Assembly (NCBI GenBank): GCA_031291825.1
Contig: JARLIG010000009.1
Coordinates: 65,281 to 129,280, forward strand
Reading direction: 5' to 3'
DNA: 64,000 nucleotides
DNA from: Minisyncoccota bacterium
Lineage (GTDB): Bacteria; Patescibacteriota; Minisyncoccia; Phycocordibacterales; UBA9973
The position numbers were made by a program, and so were the translations under genes. This document shows, in pieces, positions 36,153 through 41,101 of the stretch; position 1 is the stretch's first letter; the number at the start of each line of letters is the position of its first letter. Below the pieces are notes generated by a model. The model was not told the DNA's origin, did not search any database, and worked only from the letters and a program-made list of their open reading frames with translations.

Positions 36153-36500
36153 CTATTTTTTCTTAGCATCGTCAGCGGCTGCAGTCGCACCTTTGGCGGC
36201 GGTTATTTCTGCTTCCTTTTTCTTCTGTTCGAGTTCTTTCTGCATCTTTCCTCCGTGCTTGATAAATTTCTTAGTTGGAGAAAATTCACCCAATCGGTGG
36301 CCCACCATATCTTCGGTGACTAAAACTTCGATGTGAACCTTGCCGTTATAAACGCCAAAAGTAAAACCGAGCATTTCTGGAGAAATAACAGCAGCTCTTT
36401 TCCAAGTCTTTACCATAGGAGTATTGAGCGGGTTTTTACCAGCAATCTTTGATAAGAGCCTCTCGTCAACGTTTAATCCTTTTTTAATACTTCGTGTCAT
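36153..36500 (-). CDS. rpsS: 30S ribosomal protein S19 (with Lys/Ala-rich C-terminal extension)
   Basis: MTRSIKKGLNVDERLLSKI...GHRLGEFSPTKKF canonical S19 core. Confidence 0.85.
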   Translation of the reverse strand: MTRSIKKGLNVDERLLSKIAGKNPLNTPMVKTWKRAAVISPEMLGFTFGVYNGKVHIEVLVTEDMVGHRLGEFSPTKKFIKHGGKMQKELEQKKKEAEITAAKGATAAADDAKKK

Positions 36501-36525
36501 AATAAAAAGCTCCTAACGAGCTTGG

Positions 36526-36557
36526 ATTTATACTAACAAATAAGGAAAAATTGTCAA
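36526..36557 (-). promoter_or_regulatory. strong sigma70-type promoter (TTGACA...TATAAAT) plus SD AGGAG driving rpsS immediately downstream of the island
   Basis: Gene-sense GTTGACAATTTTTCCTTATTTGTTAGTATAAATCCAAGCTCGTTAGGAGCTTTTTATTATG. Confidence 0.5.
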
Positions 36558-36629
36558 CTAGATTTTTAAAAACCATTATGTTAAAAAGCTCAAATCAAAA
36601 AACTACTTTTTTGGTTTAAATAAAAATAC

Positions 36630-36657
36630 GGGACTAGCAAAATTAGCTGCTAGTCCC
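36630..36657 (-). terminator. intrinsic terminator GGGACTAGCAGCTAATTTTGCTAGTCCC plus U-run (minus strand)
   Basis: Perfect 8-bp stem followed by GTATTTTTATTT in gene sense; preceded by a second GC-rich hairpin at ~36790-36830. Confidence 0.55.
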
Positions 36658-36844
36658 GTTGCTTTGGATGTGTAGAAGGATTCTCAGTTCTTCTACCGCA
36701 TGAGATAGCTCTACGGTGGAGACCAATCCAAAAGAACTATCCTGCTCGAAATATAGTATACAGAAAAAAATAAAGCAAATAAAAATCGCCCAGAAATACT
36801 GATGGCCGGCTCCGCGTGTTACGCGAAACCGGCCGTGTTGATGG

Positions 36845-37093
36845 TTACTTTTTGGTTCCTGCGATAACGCACAGGACCCCGAATCCAATCCCTATTGTCG
36901 CGATAATTCCGCGCGAAAGTAAGAGTTGCGTGCCAACGTGATGGTCAGGTCCCATCTGAATGAATACGTCGGCGAAGTGTGTGCCGGCGATGAGCGAGAC
37001 GATTCCAACGTACGGGCAAACTTTGTCCCAAACCCTATCCCAAAAATCGGTCTGGTTCTCGTTGGCGTTTTCGTCCAAAAATTCAAGAGGCAT
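36845..37093 (-). CDS. island sORF g6: small two-TM membrane protein (82 aa)
   Basis: SD GGAG 8 nt before ATG (ACGGAGAACAAGATG); MPLEFLDENANENQTDFWDRVWDKVCPYVGIVSLIAGTHF...GIIATIGIGFGVLCVIAGTKK. Confidence 0.35.
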   Translation of the reverse strand: MPLEFLDENANENQTDFWDRVWDKVCPYVGIVSLIAGTHFADVFIQMGPDHHVGTQLLLSRGIIATIGIGFGVLCVIAGTKK

Positions 37094-37142
37094 CTTGTTC
37101 TCCGTGTTTCTCGCGCACATCTGTACGCGTGTTGATTGCCGG

Positions 37143-37331
37143 TTAGTCGTGGCGATGACGTGATAAATACCATACACCAAAGGGAAGAACGATCGCAGAA
37201 ATCACTCGTAACCACATCTCGGAGCTAGGTCCAAAAACCAGAATTAACCCGGCAACGATGACTAACGTGAAAACGATCCCCGCTTGCGCTCCCTCATTCG
37301 TAGTATCTACATCTTGCCGCTGAGTTTGCAT
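37143..37331 (-). CDS. island sORF g5: small membrane protein (62 aa)
   Basis: SD AAGGAG 8 nt before ATG; own promoter TTGACT-N17-TATGTT (plus 37353-37381); two hydrophobic helices. Confidence 0.4.
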   Translation of the reverse strand: MQTQRQDVDTTNEGAQAGIVFTLVIVAGLILVFGPSSEMWLRVISAIVLPFGVWYLSRHRHD

Positions 37332-37393
37332 GGAATGTACTCCTTCCCCTATAACATATCACATAATATCCTAAAAGTCAAGTAAAAATTGGG

Positions 37394-37432
37394 CAAAAAA
37401 AACGGGCTTCCGGTGTGAACACAGAAGCCCGT
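37394..37432 (-). terminator. canonical intrinsic terminator ACGGGCTTCTGTGTTCACACCGGAAGCCCGUUUUUUUU (minus strand)
   Basis: 9-bp GC stem followed by eight T in gene sense. Confidence 0.6.
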
Positions 37433-37439
37433 TGGGAGA

Positions 37440-37560
37440 ATGGTGCAAATGGCGCAATCCATCCCCTGATAGGTGGTATCAAGGGAGCCAATGGGGCTAC
37501 AACCATCAAGGCATAGTCATTGAAGGGAGCCACCTCCTCAATACCACCGTCCGATAATAT
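37440..37560 (-). ncRNA. candidate small structured RNA (~160 nt transcript ending at the 37394-37432 terminator)
   Basis: No SD-led ORF. Long-range pairing GGUGGUAU...AUACCACC enclosing repeated GGGAGCCA boxes; between a promoter-like box (TTGTAT-N16-TATATT) and a canonical terminator. Confidence 0.25.
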
Positions 37561-37617
37561 AACATACTTATAAAAAAATACAAGTCCAGATAATAAAATT
37601 TGGGTAAACAAGGTAAT

Positions 37618-37646
37618 GGGGTTCGCCGACAGAATCGACGAACCCC
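37618..37646. repeat. GC-rich hairpin GGGGTTCGCCGACAGAATCGACGAACCCC (copy A); identical copy B at 37992-38020
   Basis: 29-nt direct repeat, 12-bp stem; each directly follows the stop codon of a minus-strand sORF. Confidence 0.7.
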
Positions 37647-37657
37647 ATTTTGAAGCC

Positions 37658-37837
37658 TTAGTAGCAGCCTCGATTGTCGTAGCGTATGAGCGCAGGACGC
37701 TCACGCGGAGCACGCACTGCAAGTTTGACGGCTTCGTACCCATCATCTGAGGAGTGAGCAACGAATGGCTCACCGCGACGGTAAGTAGAAGCGGAAACAA
37801 CGGTAAGTGTTTGCGGTACTTTTGTGTTCTTCTTCAT
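37658..37837 (-). CDS. island sORF g3 (59 aa, hydrophilic)
   Basis: SD AGGA 7 nt before ATG (CAGAGGACTTGAGATG); MKKNTKVPQTLTVVSASTYRRGEPFVAHSSDDGYEAVKLAVRAPRERPALIRYDNRGCY; stop abuts hairpin A. Confidence 0.35.
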   Translation of the reverse strand: MKKNTKVPQTLTVVSASTYRRGEPFVAHSSDDGYEAVKLAVRAPRERPALIRYDNRGCY

Positions 37838-37942
37838 CTCAAGTCCTCTGTGTGGATAGGTTGGCTTCCCATCCTCTGCTGTGAACATTGACATTGTGCT
37901 CTGCTTACATTGGACAAACAAAGCAGGAACTTCTTATCTTTA

Positions 37943-37970
37943 TTTATACCACTTAAAATAATTAACACAA
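37943..37970 (-). promoter_or_regulatory. island promoter box B: TTGTGTTAATTATTTTAAGTGGTATAAAT (minus strand)
   Basis: TTGTGT-N16-TATAAA; same box at 38311-38336 (TTGTGTTATTTTAATTAAGTGTTATAAC) and 38586-38612 (TTGTGTTATTTTGAAAAAGTGGTATAAA). Confidence 0.5.
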
Positions 37971-38034
37971 GGGGAAAGTAAACATGAAGATGGGGTTCGC
38001 CGACAGAATCGACGAACCCCAAATTTGATATCTG

Positions 38035-38244
38035 CTACACCCGATACATCAATCTGTCTCCCCTCTCTGCTGACAGAGGAGACGCGACCACCTTCGGCTC
38101 AACACCACGCCGTGCGTCGTCGAATGCCTTCGACAAACCTCCAGGCTGTTCTCCTTCTTGCCGAGATTGGTTGTATTTCAAAAGAGACTGCTTTGAAGAC
38201 TGGTTGCTCTGATGTCTTGATCCTGAAGCGCTTGATTTGCTCAT
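38035..38244 (-). CDS. island sORF g2 (69 aa, Ser/Gln-rich hydrophilic)
   Basis: SD AAGGAG 6 nt before ATG; MSKSSASGSRHQSNQSSKQSLLKYNQSRQEGEQPGG...; stop abuts hairpin B. Confidence 0.4.
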   Translation of the reverse strand: MSKSSASGSRHQSNQSSKQSLLKYNQSRQEGEQPGGLSKAFDDARRGVEPKVVASPLSAERGDRLMYRV

Positions 38245-38310
38245 CGTTTCTCCTTGAGGGGTTGTGTTTGTTAAACAACTTAAACTAAAAAGGTGCATAT
38301 CTTTTTTAGT

Positions 38311-38336
38311 TATAACACTTAATTAAAATAACACAA
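38311..38336 (-). promoter_or_regulatory. island promoter box C
   Basis: TTGTGTTATTTTAATTAAGTGTTATAAC ~60 nt upstream of the g2 SD. Confidence 0.45.
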
Positions 38337-38367
38337 GGTAAAATTTTTAAATTGAGTAGACATAGCG

Positions 38368-38393
38368 AGGGCGCCGAGTTGGTCTCGGCGCCC
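38368..38393. repeat. GC-rich perfect hairpin GGGCGCCGAG-TTGGTC-CTCGGCGCCC
   Basis: 10-bp perfect stem directly after the g1 stop. Confidence 0.6.
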
Positions 38394-38407
38394 TTGAATC
38401 TTAAATC

Positions 38408-38545
38408 TCATTCTTTGTCGTCGAAACGCCGACGGCGGCGCGGCTGACGGTTGCGAGGACGGTTTGGCAACTGCTGCGCGTTACGGGTAACCGCTCTGGT
38501 AACCCACTTCGGAGCTGATAGCTCCGCACGACGAGTTCTCGTCAT
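38408..38545 (-). CDS. island sORF g1 (45 aa, extremely Arg-rich)
   Basis: Hand-translated: SD GGAG 7 nt before ATG; MTRTRRAELSAPKWVTRAVTRNAQQLPNRPRNRQPRRRRRFDDKE-TGA. Not in the ORF track (shorter than 60 aa). Confidence 0.35.
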   Translation of the reverse strand: MTRTRRAELSAPKWVTRAVTRNAQQLPNRPRNRQPRRRRRFDDKE

Positions 38546-38585
38546 CTTTTTTCTCCAAATGGAAAAATGAACATCTATGGAGATA

Positions 38586-38612
38586 TTTATACCACTTTTT
38601 CAAAATAACACA
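38586..38612 (-). promoter_or_regulatory. island promoter box D
   Basis: TTGTGTTATTTTGAAAAAGTGGTATAAA ~40 nt upstream of the g1 ATG. Confidence 0.45.
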
Positions 38613-38633
38613 ATAGCAAAAGTGTATAAAGCA

Positions 38634-38674
38634 AAAGACGTCGGACATCTGTTGCTACAGGTGTCCGACGTCTT
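38634..38674. repeat. REP-like perfect palindrome AAGACGTCGGACA-loop-TGTCCGACGTCTT immediately after the rplB stop
   Basis: 13-bp perfect stem; member of the GACGTyGGACA family. Confidence 0.6.
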
Positions 38675-38695
38675 TTGCTTAAGTATTTTTATTTT

Positions 38696-39535
38696 TTATT
38701 TATTCTTCCCAGTCTTACGGCGAGAAACGATAAACACATTAGAGTATTTCTTTGGACCACGAGTTTTGCGTCCACCAGTAACCTTACCCCACATGGTCTT
38801 AGGACGTTTGGTTCCGCGACCTTGGCGGCCCTCACCTCCTCCGTATGGATGGTCAACTGGATTCATCGCCGTGCCTCGAACAGTTGGACGAATTCCTTTC
38901 CAACGACTGCGTCCAGCTTTACCATAATTTTCCAAATGATGTTCTTCATTAGAAACAGTACCGACACACGCCCAACATTTTTCATTTATTTTTCTGATTT
39001 CCGTTGAAGGCATTTTCAAGTTTGTATATCCATCAGCATTTGCGACAACTTGTGCAAAGATTCCTGCAGAACGTCCAATCTTCGCACCACCCATTGGCTT
39101 AATTTCAACATTATAAACAAATGTTCCAACTGGAATAAACTGCAAAGGTAAACGATTGCCTGGCTTCAATTCTGCTTTCTCGGAAACGATAAATGAATCA
39201 CCAGGCTTTACAGACTTTGGCAAAACCACATATCTTTTTTCTCCGTCCTTGTAAACAGCAAGTCCAATGAAGGCTGAACGATTTGGGTCATATTCAACAG
39301 ATGTAATTTTTGCAGGAATATCTTTTTTGTTGTAAATAAAATCAACTTCGCGGAAAAGACGCTTATGACCAGAACCTTTGTGTCGCATCGTGATACGACC
39401 TTGACTGTTGCGGCCGACAGCGCGCTTGAAACCATAAGTGAGCGACTTGGTTGGTGTCGTCTTCGTCAAGACACCACGGTAAGTCACGTTGGTCATCTGT
39501 CTTCTTGATTTACTTGTTGGTTTGTATGTTTTCAT
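38696..39535 (-). CDS. rplB: 50S ribosomal protein L2
   Basis: 279 aa, canonical L2 (GRNSQGRITMRHKGSGHKR, MNPVDHPYGGGEG). Confidence 0.9.
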   Translation of the reverse strand: MKTYKPTSKSRRQMTNVTYRGVLTKTTPTKSLTYGFKRAVGRNSQGRITMRHKGSGHKRLFREVDFIYNKKDIPAKITSVEYDPNRSAFIGLAVYKDGEKRYVVLPKSVKPGDSFIVSEKAELKPGNRLPLQFIPVGTFVYNVEIKPMGGAKIGRSAGIFAQVVANADGYTNLKMPSTEIRKINEKCWACVGTVSNEEHHLENYGKAGRSRWKGIRPTVRGTAMNPVDHPYGGGEGRQGRGTKRPKTMWGKVTGGRKTRGPKKYSNVFIVSRRKTGKNK

Positions 39536-39538
39536 ATA

Positions 39539-39808
39539 CTAAATTAATTCTATCTTGTCTCCTTTTTTTAAATAAACAAAAGCCTTTCTGCCACCCCCAC
39601 GTGCTCCTTTTATTCCTTTAGACATTGTCTTTTTCTTTGGAATAGAAAGAACATTTACTTTAATTGGGTGAACCTTATAGAGAGCAAAAACTGCTTTTTT
39701 TATTTCTGTCTTATTAGCAGAAGCGGAAATATCAAAAGTGTAAACATTTTGCTCTGCTGCAAAAGATGCTTTCTCGGTAACTCTTGGATTTTTGATTATT
39801 GTTGTCAT
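39539..39808 (-). CDS. rplW: 50S ribosomal protein L23
   Basis: Size and position between rplD and rplB; ...YTFDISASANKTEIKKAV. Confidence 0.8.
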   Translation of the reverse strand: MTTIIKNPRVTEKASFAAEQNVYTFDISASANKTEIKKAVFALYKVHPIKVNVLSIPKKKTMSKGIKGARGGGRKAFVYLKKGDKIELI

Positions 39809-39813
39809 AAAAT

Positions 39814-40485
39814 TTATCCGCGAGCTTCTAAGAATTTAACACTTTCGACCGGATTTTCTATTAAAAGATATTTATATTGAAGCACGTCCATTGGATTTAA
39901 ATTTTTCAAGAAAACTATTTCAAGCGAGGGAATATTTCGGAAACTCTTTTCAGCTTTTTCATCTCGTCCGAATAAAGCTGTCAACACTCTAGGCTTTTTA
40001 GAACTAGCTAGTGTCTTCCATCCGGAAGCTTTGGCTAAATTCTTAACAACCTCCACAGCATTTTTAGTTTTGATATCAGACAAAGACAAACTATCAACAA
40101 AAAGAATTTCATTGTCCTTTAATTTTTTAGAAAGTACAGAAAACAGAGCTTGTGCACGCATTTTCTTGGAAACCTTTCGCTTATAGTTCTTCTCAGCAAG
40201 TGGACCATGGGTGACACCTCCACCAACCCAGATAGGACTACGAGAAGAACCGTGTCGAGCGCGTCCAGTTCCCTTTTGTTTCCAAGGCTTCTTTCCACCC
40301 CCCCGTACTTCTCCACGGTCTTTGGTGTCAGCAGTACCAGAACGCTTGTTGCTGCGCATTCCTTCTACCACTTGGTGCACTAAATCTGCGCGCCACTTTG
40401 CGGCAAAAACTTTTTCCGGCAAACTTATGCTTCCCGCGTCAGTTCCTTTTTGATCATATATTTTTGCTTGTATTTTTGCTTCCAT
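39814..40485 (-). CDS. rplD: 50S ribosomal protein L4
   Basis: Canonical L4 (KPWKQKGTGRARHGS). Confidence 0.85.
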   Translation of the reverse strand: MEAKIQAKIYDQKGTDAGSISLPEKVFAAKWRADLVHQVVEGMRSNKRSGTADTKDRGEVRGGGKKPWKQKGTGRARHGSSRSPIWVGGGVTHGPLAEKNYKRKVSKKMRAQALFSVLSKKLKDNEILFVDSLSLSDIKTKNAVEVVKNLAKASGWKTLASSKKPRVLTALFGRDEKAEKSFRNIPSLEIVFLKNLNPMDVLQYKYLLIENPVESVKFLEARG

Positions 40486-40486
40486 A

Positions 40487-41101
40487 TTATCTTTGTACTA
40501 TTTCTACTAAGGTTCCTTTTCGGCCAGCAATCGCTCCTTTAATAAACATTAAACTATTTTCTTTATCAACAAAAACTACTTCCAAATTTTTCTGGAAAAT
40601 TCTGTCTGAGCCCATTCTGCCTGCCATTCTCATTCCTTTTGGAACGTGAGTACGCAATCCTCCGCCGATACTTCCAGGTTCACGCTCGGAATGCTTTTGA
40701 CCGTGAGTACGTGGACCACCATGGAAACCATGACGCTTCACAACACCCTGAAAACCTTTACCCTTAGAAATACTGGCAACAGAAACTTTGTCTCCTCCTG
40801 CAAAAACAGTTGCATCAATAACATCCCCTTCTTTAGCGGTGTGCTTATCGCTAGGTTTTAGTCTGAATTCTTTTAAGTTTTTATAGAAAGCGCCTTTCAT
40901 TGCACCAGCACTACCCTTAGAAACTCTTTCTTTTTTTTGTGTCCCAACACCAACTTGTACGGAATCATATCCATCTTTGGCTTTCTCAAAAACTCTAGTC
41001 ACCGTAATTGGTGGAACAGAAACAATAGTCACAGGAACAACTGTCCCATCTTCTCGGAAATACTCAGACATATTTTCTTTTGTTCCTAGGATAAATTTCA
41101 T
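40487..41101 (-). CDS. rplC: 50S ribosomal protein L3
   Basis: Canonical L3 (FKGAMQ-like, GKGFQGVVKRHGF). Confidence 0.9.
   Translation of the reverse strand: MKFILGTKENMSEYFREDGTVVPVTIVSVPPITVTRVFEKAKDGYDSVQVGVGTQKKERVSKGSAGAMKGAFYKNLKEFRLKPSDKHTAKEGDVIDATVFAGGDKVSVASISKGKGFQGVVKRHGFHGGPRTHGQKHSEREPGSIGGGLRTHVPKGMRMAGRMGSDRIFQKNLEVVFVDKENSLMFIKGAIAGRKGTLVEIVQR

Follow-up and report, generated by a model that had tools for sequence, protein, structure and literature searches.

The 64,000-nucleotide (nt) stretch of contig JARLIG010000009.1 analysed here (assembly GCA_031291825.1; 64 kb, hereafter the window) carries an S10 operon that is split between rplB (38696-39535) and rpsS (36153-36500) by an islet of 2195 bp (~2.2 kb, 36501-38695). 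Both genes lie on the minus strand, as do the islet and all of its features described below, and the flanks hold the genes for the ribosomal proteins L23, L4, L3, S10, L22 and S3. The GC content of the islet is 43-51%, against 32-46% in sliding windows of the flanking operon and an average of 39% in the training open reading frames (ORFs), and no second long non-coding or GC-rich gap was found in the window. The genome is that of an uncultured member of Candidatus Nomurabacteria (Patescibacteria, Candidate Phyla Radiation (CPR)); the closest public genomes are metagenome-assembled genomes of Candidatus Nomurabacteria, with L2 proteins at most 95% identical.

Read from rplB towards rpsS, the stop codon of rplB is followed by a canonical terminator hairpin and then by three units of one architecture, each consisting of a promoter-like box, a short ORF and a GC-rich hairpin: box A, ORF A (45 amino acids (aa), 13 of them Arg) and hairpin A; box B, ORF B (69 aa) and hairpin B; box C, ORF C (59 aa, with its ATG at 37837) and hairpin C. 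A weaker box then precedes an ORF-less RNA of ~160 nt (nc1) closed by a canonical terminator, a TTGACT-17-TATGTT promoter precedes ORF D (62 aa), ORF E (82 aa) and a further hairpin, and a promoter-like stretch precedes a second ORF-less RNA (nc2, ~130 nt), again with a canonical terminator. The rpsS promoter (TTGACA-16-TAGTAT) and a short leader hairpin complete the islet. The boxes and hairpins of units A, B and C are ordinary in kind, yet conserved and oddly placed.

Promoter-like boxes and GC-rich hairpins

Three minus-strand boxes had been picked out at this locus from the letters alone (the sequence-only reading), and a pattern search recovered all of them: TTGTGTTAnTTTnAnnAAGTGnTATAA matches at 38587-38613, 38310-38336 and 37944-37970, the only matches with up to three mismatches in the 64 kb, against 0.00 expected (0 in 100 shuffles). 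The proposed hexamers, TTGTGT as -35 and TATAAA or TATAAC as -10, are present as described, and their spacing, first given as 16-17 nt, is 16 nt in all three. Box A (38584-38613) reads TTGTGT-16 nt-TGgTATAAA and is 81% identical to its ortholog in L090, a locus that runs from the rplB terminator through rpsS and has a counterpart for every unit of the islet. Box B (38307-38336; TTGTGT-16 nt-TGtTATAAC) agrees with its L090 ortholog at 27/30 positions, the TATAAC variant included, and box C (37941-37970; TTGTGT-16 nt-TGgTATAAA) at 26/30. The three boxes are pairwise 76-78% identical over 37 nt, and each is placed 15-31 nt past the preceding hairpin (from the rplB terminator to hairpin B) and ~35-100 nt ahead of an ORF with a Shine-Dalgarno (SD)-like motif.

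Eight boxes of three lineages (the window and L090 with three each, and a second orthologous locus, L095, with two) align without gaps, and the invariant columns are TTGT in the -35 element, two or three T of the spacer, and the TG and TATAA of an extended -10 element. In 8/8 boxes the hexamers are 16 nt apart, inside the 16-18 nt range of sigma70, and the TG occupies positions -15/-14, one base ahead of the -10 hexamer; the -35 hexamer TTGTGT matches TTGACA at 4 of 6 positions. Orthologous boxes of the window and L090 are 81-90% identical, while the synonymous divergence (dS) of the adjacent rpsS is 0.67. As far as the letters can tell, this pattern of conservation is that of an extended -10 promoter of the sigma70 type, and the boxes are probably such promoters, with predicted activity. 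They resemble known extended -10 (TGn) sigma70 promoters in the TTG-containing -35, the 16-nt A/T-rich spacer, the TG and TATAA-containing -10 and the short 5' untranslated regions (UTRs) downstream, and differ from them in an A or C at -7, where T is otherwise near-universal, and in the TTGTGT or TTGTTT of the -35. The retention of the TATAAC variant of box B in L090 indicates that the boxes are old paralogs under selection, not recently homogenised copies. No match to the box was found in viral contigs, and in 241 million metagenome records the pattern had only 7 hits, unrelated to the locus, 5 of which form one AT-rich repeat family and at most one of which (L087) is promoter-like.

Each of the three units ends in a hairpin. 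Hairpin A (38369-38393; GGGCGCCGAG-ACCAA-CTCGGCGCCC), which lacks a U-tract, lies 14 nt past the stop codon of ORF A and folds at -23.7 kcal/mol. Hairpin B (37992-38020; GGGGUUCGUCGA-UUCUG-UCGGCGAACCCC, with one G-U pair and the tail AUCUUCAUGUUUAC) lies 14 nt past the stop of ORF B, and hairpin C (37618-37646), identical to hairpin B, lies 11 nt past the stop of ORF C; counted with their flanking extra pairs, the hairpins start 8-14 nt past the stop codons. The stems are GC-rich and 10-16 bp long, with folding energies of -23.7, -24.5 and -26.7 kcal/mol for the three hairpins (z scores of -5.3 to -7.2). The 29-mer GGGGTTCGTCGATTCTGTCGGCGAACCCC (minus-strand reading) does occur twice in identical form, at the sites of hairpins B and C, as had been noticed before, with 0 copies expected, and with its flanks the repeat spans 44 nt at 91% identity. 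The earlier description of these hairpins as perfect does not hold for the 29-mer as a DNA palindrome, in which one T:G position pairs (as G-U) in minus-strand RNA only; the sense RNA of the 29-mer folds at -24.5 kcal/mol against -19.6 kcal/mol for the antisense RNA.

Seven hairpins make up the family (A, B and C of the window, A, B and C of L090, and one of L095), and all seven share the stem core CG(C/T)CGA...TCGGCG and the motif TGT(T/C)TAC located 6-7 nt beyond the stem. Hairpins A and B match their L090 orthologs at every position, loops included (26/26 and 29/29), and no other part of the islet is conserved as strongly in sequence: between the window and L090, identity is 58% for the rplB terminator, 53% for hairpin C, 77% for the hairpin after ORF E, 60% for the nc2 terminator and 53-69% (nt) for the ORFs, and the nc1 terminator could not be aligned. 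The L090 hairpin C is a different and equally stable stem-loop (-28.1 kcal/mol) with the same CGCCGA/TCGGCG core, compensated pairs and a tail that resembles the tail of hairpin C in the window, where a copy of hairpin B probably replaced the original stem-loop in a recent gene-conversion-like event in this lineage. In L095 the B homolog is followed by a hairpin related to hairpin A. The position, stability, strand asymmetry and compensation of these hairpins point to a role at the RNA level at transcript 3' ends, most likely as terminators and/or 3' stabilisers.

Two short Logan contigs of the same strain (L001 and L002, from SRR23300978 and SRR23300977; compared with 37990-40576 of the window) break off inside the islet, one of them just beyond hairpin B, the first copy of the 29-mer, and their gene calls omit ORFs A and B. 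The repeated 29-mer thus fragments short-read assemblies, and the mini-genes are missing from standard annotation.

Coding status of the ORFs and age of the array

ORF B (38035-38244; hydrophilic, with AAGGAGA upstream) belongs to a conserved small-protein family. When 1.84 billion representative proteins were searched exhaustively with HMMER, two homologs were returned (P0005, 54%, and P0003, 56%), and a profile of the family recovered only these two as well. The ratio of nonsynonymous to synonymous divergence (dN/dS) is 0.08 between the window and L090 and 0.24 between the window and L095, with codon position 3 the least conserved, and this purifying selection marks ORF B as protein-coding; in the codon score one antisense frame lies marginally above its coding frame. 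The AlphaFold (AF2) model of the protein consists of three helices at low confidence (predicted local distance difference test (pLDDT) 63). ORF E has a dN/dS of 0.17 and homologs in P0004 (52%) and P0006 (44%), each adjoining rpsS, and the same search also found ORFs D and E themselves. By these comparisons of sequence ORFs B and E are coding. Where an amino acid is conserved between the window and L090, the codon is the same at 37% of the positions in B and at 42% of those in E, compared with 68% for the adjacent rpsS, in small samples; either the silent sites of the mini-genes diverge faster or those of rpsS are constrained.

ORFs A, C and D are probably coding as well. ORF A (38408-38545), with GGAGA 6 nt upstream, is 39% identical to its L090 homolog, in which the 5' UTR and the start context are the same. 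For ORF C (37658-37837; GAGGA upstream) the start context GGACTyGAGATGAAGA is kept in L090 and the L095 counterpart starts with MKT..., and the upstream ATGs of a longer reading of this ORF are not conserved. In A, C, D and E the frame of the ORF has a higher codon score than any of the other five, with ORF C scoring best among the islet ORFs. The structure of the RNA is not unusual in the bodies of B (z -0.6) and C (z -1.3), and unit A is somewhat structured (z -2.75).

Homologs of the islet ORFs occur in syntenic islets only. ORFs A and C had no match among the 1.84 billion representative proteins, and ORFs A-E gave nothing better than E = 0.028 against Pfam, PHROGs, NCBIfam and PADLOC. A concatenated query of the five ORFs had no hit in a word-indexed protein database, and profiles of their families found no member in the six-frame translations of the loci of 80 GTDB relatives. 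Two likenesses to the islet families noted by eye (KNGRW in L007 and GDARKG in L009) were not significant and were discarded. Neither ORF C nor ORF E has relatives in viral contigs, and the DNA of the islet had no match in phage or plasmid records.

The composition of the array differs between the orthologous loci and the order of its units is conserved. In L090, of which L091-L094 are strain-level variants with few differences, nc1 is doubled and extra palindromes are present, among them a separate palindrome, TTGTCGGACAAC...GTTGTCCGACAA, in three copies. In L095 the stop of rplB leads directly to a box, a B homolog, a hairpin, a second box and the start of a C-like ORF, with no ORF A, and L096 holds an nc1-like RNA, an E homolog and rpsS, and neither D nor nc2. 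Since all three units are present in L090 and B and C in L095, the array is old: A, B and C predate the split from L090, and B and C that from L095. The duplication of whole cassettes, which the sequence-only reading had suggested, is not borne out as a recent event: the bodies of units A, B and C align locally no better than shuffles in DNA or protein (z -0.6 to 0.6), the units were already in place in the other lineages, and hairpin C alone looks copied, from hairpin B. The gain and loss of units between lineages shows instead that the array evolves unit by unit, plausibly through recombination between similar junctions.

Interpretation of the boxes and hairpins

The reading that we favour, and hold to be likely while well short of certain, is that the boxes are extended -10 promoters and the hairpins the 3'-end hairpins of three tandem, independently transcribed mini-genes (A, B and C) in the rplB-rpsS islet. 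Each unit would then carry a private and full set of signals (promoter, SD-like motif, ORF and hairpin), and the hairpin-spacer-promoter junctions would shield each unit from its neighbours. The three units make up the first half of an islet that fills an old break of the S10 operon, in which rplB has a terminator of its own and rpsS a predicted promoter and a leader hairpin of its own. The likeness among the boxes, and among the hairpins, would reflect their origin as old paralogous regulatory modules that selection has preserved. In its essentials this leaves the basic reading of the locus unchanged (probable promoters and transcript-end hairpins of small orphan genes), and to judge from the sequence comparisons the earlier account was largely right: a box stands before each ORF with an SD-like motif and a hairpin just past each stop. 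Its doubt that the hairpins are plain intrinsic terminators was well placed too, given the lack of a canonical U-tract despite three canonical terminators in the same islet and the complete identity of hairpins A and B in the ortholog. The concern that boxes and hairpins might be genome-wide repeats was addressed in the 64-kb window and in public collections, where no further copies were found. What is added is an old, conserved array of autonomous mini-genes and small RNA (sRNA)-like units within a split S10 operon.

Several observations weigh against this reading. The -10 element is TATAAA or TATAAC, so that the A at -11 is present and position -7 is A or C, not T, in 8/8 boxes; the consensus promoter scan missed the boxes because this T is absent, and the other promoters of the islet (rpsS, D-E, nc1 and nc2) do carry it. 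The tail of hairpin A (UCGCUAUGUCUACUC) has no U-rich stretch at all, and the tails of hairpins B and C are 50% U with no run beyond UUU, whereas the rplB, nc1 and nc2 terminators are canonical; hairpins B and C, with 5 T in 8 nt, are nevertheless accepted by a lenient terminator scan. A generic terminator would be expected to vary more between lineages than hairpins A and B, which are identical down to their loops. Beyond L090 and L095, ORFs A and C lack homologs, and independent assemblies did not call them as genes; an array present in three lineages only yields weak covariation statistics.

Some of these points would be accommodated if the hairpins were mainly sequence-specific RNA recognition elements, that is, protein sites or RNase targets that govern stability, processing or read-through, with the boxes still acting as promoters. 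We regard this as unlikely but take it seriously because both loops and stems are invariant. The complete identity of hairpins A and B in L090, set against 53-77% in five other islet hairpins and the dS of rpsS given above, is what such elements would be expected to display, and the stem core and tail motif common to the seven hairpins, together with the lack of a canonical U-tract at A, B and C, fit as well. Candidates for the binding partner are a ribosomal protein and a co-encoded basic protein, and the Arg-rich ORF A (13/45 aa) would suit the latter; L095, however, keeps an A-type hairpin with no ORF A between rplB and its B unit. Stems are moreover slow to change at this divergence anyway, the loops are not GNRA-like, unlike that of boxB, no known family of cis-regulatory RNA is matched, and the sequence names no binding partner. 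Antitermination of the lambda N/boxB type was rejected for the same two reasons, the loops ACCAA and UUCUG/UCU not resembling a GNRA-like pentaloop and the L095 hairpin standing without ORF A, in spite of the Arg-rich composition of that ORF. Another account leaves the signals as they are and denies the proteins: units A and C, and possibly others, would be non-coding small RNAs with ORFs that are by-products of GC-rich sequence. Two clear ORF-less units do exist in the islet, which is GC-rich in an AT-rich genome, the homologs of A and C are limited to weakly similar counterparts in the orthologous islet, the gene finder did not call either ORF in L001 and L002, and the body of unit A is somewhat structured. 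Yet the SD-like motif and the start codon are kept in L090 (A and C) and in L095 (C), the in-frame codon score of both ORFs exceeds that of the other five frames, the body of C is unstructured, and unit B, of the same architecture, is clearly coding; we therefore consider a non-coding nature of these units improbable.

Mobility of the units is the least probable of the accounts considered, and we give it very little credence. Under it the units would be integron-like or MITE/REP-like cassettes (miniature inverted-repeat transposable elements; repetitive extragenic palindromic elements) with the hairpins and/or boxes as recombination sites. It would explain the repeated ends around unrelated bodies, the gain and loss of units (A absent from L095, D and nc2 from L096, nc1 doubled in L090), the different mini-genes that other Nomurabacteria hold at the same site and the threefold palindrome of the L090 islet (TTGTCGGACAAC...GTTGTCCGACAA). 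Against it, no recombinase gene adjoins the islet, as the immediately flanking ORFs match ribosomal proteins, and the hairpins measure 25-29 nt and not 57-141 nt, with no RYYYAAC...GTTRRRY core sites in the order of attC; the GTTCGTC...GGCGAAC found in the hairpin is, in direct reading, in the wrong order for attC core sites and off their consensus. The units also carry their own promoters, unlike integron cassettes, their order is conserved between lineages, the few metagenome hits of the box pattern are unrelated, and no copies were seen elsewhere in the 64-kb window, in viral contigs or in phage or plasmid records. The resemblance to integron attC arrays thus extends to the tandem arrangement of small unrelated ORFs, the imperfect palindrome at the end of each and a content that varies by lineage, and stops at the integrase gene (absent from the immediate flanks), the core sites, the hairpin length, the promoters and the conserved order. 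Dispersed palindromes of the REP/MITE type were likewise rejected, since the hairpin core occurs at the three islet sites only in the 64 kb and the hairpin has no match in viral contigs.

For the favoured reading of the hairpins as transcript-end elements, two known systems offer comparison. Terminators without a U-tract ('I-shaped') are known from Mycobacteria and other Actinobacteria, with disputed efficiency; like them, the islet hairpins are strong GC-rich stem-loops soon after a stop codon with no canonical U run, but the genome of the window also has canonical terminators a few hundred bases away, and two of its hairpins are conserved in primary sequence. REP elements are intercistronic or 3' stabiliser hairpins of enterobacterial operons. 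The islet hairpins are similarly stable, placed at gene ends and repeated in one locus, and could block 3' exonucleases; REP elements, however, reach hundreds of genomic copies, against three hairpins in 64 kb that all lie in the islet.

A more far-reaching proposal, which is speculative and to which we attach a low probability, would make the islet a lineage-specific regulatory module. Its hairpins would bind a ribosomal protein or the co-encoded basic mini-proteins and so couple the fast-evolving mini-proteins and sRNAs to the status of the ribosome, with the mini-genes as the sole genes translated through an SD motif. If true, a CPR bacterium would possess a private channel of translation.

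The remaining units, the operon break and translation signals

The fourth unit (37392-37583) starts with the weaker fourth box (37557-37583; TTGTAT...TGtTATATT) and continues into the sRNA-like transcript nc1 (37392-37552; ~160 nt), which contains no ORF of more than 4 codons, has a z score of -3.7 and ends in a canonical terminator. Its counterparts are found in L090 (two copies), L096 and L003. Unit D-E (36845-37381) comprises the TTGACT-17-TATGTT promoter, ORF D (37143-37331) and ORF E (36845-37093), both of them membrane ORFs with two hydrophobic segments and SD-like motifs. In the nc2 region (36622-36834) the hairpin after ORF E (36804-36834) is followed by a promoter-like stretch, 84% identical in L090, and by the sRNA-like nc2 (~36622-36752; z -6.7) with its canonical terminator. 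ORF-less counterparts of these units lie at 1526-1650, 1776-1912 and 2551-2690 of L090 and at 30-185 of L096, and several ORF-less units start with a GATAGTYC...GRACTATC hairpin, which suggests that they may form a small sRNA family. Regulatory pairing of these RNAs with mRNAs found no support, and a type I toxin-antitoxin arrangement was rejected: paired with the start regions of ORFs A-E and of rpsS, neither nc1 nor nc2 formed duplexes better than those of shuffles (|z| <=1.4).

At the upstream edge of the islet, the rplB terminator hairpin (38629-38680) has a stem of 24 bp that continues on its 3' side into UUUUGCUUU; its 24-nt arms are 96% complementary and it folds at -37.4 kcal/mol (z -11.2). 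A homologous hairpin, GTCGGACA...TGTCCGAC, terminates rplB in L090. The terminator represents a second palindrome family, (T)TGTCGGACA...TGTCCGACA(A), shared by the window and L090, where copies lie at 17-55, 618-656 and 1691-1730, the two extra ones inserted after a hairpin and ahead of the following promoter. The family has the look of a short palindromic element that is repeated.

The downstream edge is formed by the rpsS promoter and leader (36501-36557), in which TTGACA-16-TAGTAT is followed by a short hairpin with a T run. The arrangement recurs in related loci (L003-L065, L090 and L096 were compared with the window): 35 of the 38 loci with a promoter of the form TTGACW-N-TAnnAT have a small hairpin and a T run within ~10 nt of it, with stems as different as GCTCG/CGAGC, CCCGC/GCGGG and GGCTC/GAGCC. 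For the rpsS part of the split operon, the leader hairpin might act as an attenuator close to the promoter or as a stabiliser of the 5' end. Autogenous control of a ribosomal-protein operon is exemplified by the L4-mediated attenuation in the S10 leader of E. coli; the rpsS half is like it in having a conserved promoter-proximal hairpin with a T run, and unlike it in that the leader is unrelated to known leaders by sequence or Rfam and concerns the edge of the islet, not its boxes and hairpins. Autogenous ribosomal-protein leader RNAs have been surveyed (PMC3616713). With Rfam 15 the whole window gave only tRNAs and the transfer-messenger RNA (tmRNA), the hits in 36400-38800 being far below gathering scores.

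Few strings of genes are as conserved in bacteria as the S10 operon, and in this related group of Patescibacteria it is systematically split at rplB|rpsS. Among 82 loci fetched, the gap between the two genes was measured in 61 relatives' loci in which both were found, and ranges from 3 bp to 5.3 kb; in other loci rpsS lies more than 6 kb off. The junction in L003-L082 holds nothing, GC-rich mini-ORFs with SD-like motifs, or ordinary genes. The sequence that the islet has in common with the GTDB relatives is limited to its last 40-100 nt (~60 in most), which hold the rpsS promoter and leader. Close relatives have other GC-rich mini-ORFs at this site, several of them with promoter-like repeats and hairpins of their own. 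The break between rplB and rpsS is old and general in these relatives, and in some lineages it holds private mini-genes and sRNA-like units.

The translation signals of the islet differ from those of the core genes. A GGAG-type motif at SD distance precedes 1 of 52 core gene starts in the window (that of rpsS) and 5 of 79 ribosomal-protein starts in 14 close relatives, drawn from L003-L022; a typical core start of the window reads ...taaaatttATG. An anti-SD motif is detectable in only ~48% of Parcubacteria (PMC9297842). In some core genes a -10-like element stands only 6-8 nt ahead of the ATG, which suggests leaderless transcripts. By contrast, a motif that is SD-like by sequence (GGAG, AGGA or GAGGA) stands 4-9 nt ahead of the start codon in 5/5 islet ORFs, and such motifs are also present in the counterparts in L090, L095 and L096 and in the mini-ORFs of L007, L009 and L013; in L004 one lies 10 nt before an ATG that reads MPKNKQ. 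The GC content at third codon positions is 46-59% in the islet ORFs against 32% in core genes. With expression signals unlike those of the core genome, the mini-genes offer a compact test case for translation start in such bacteria. Three more short intergenic ORFs with SD-like motifs, which stand without a box and hairpin, were noted at ~17432 (plus strand), 28886 (minus) and 54709 (minus), with lengths of 97, 47 and 30 codons.

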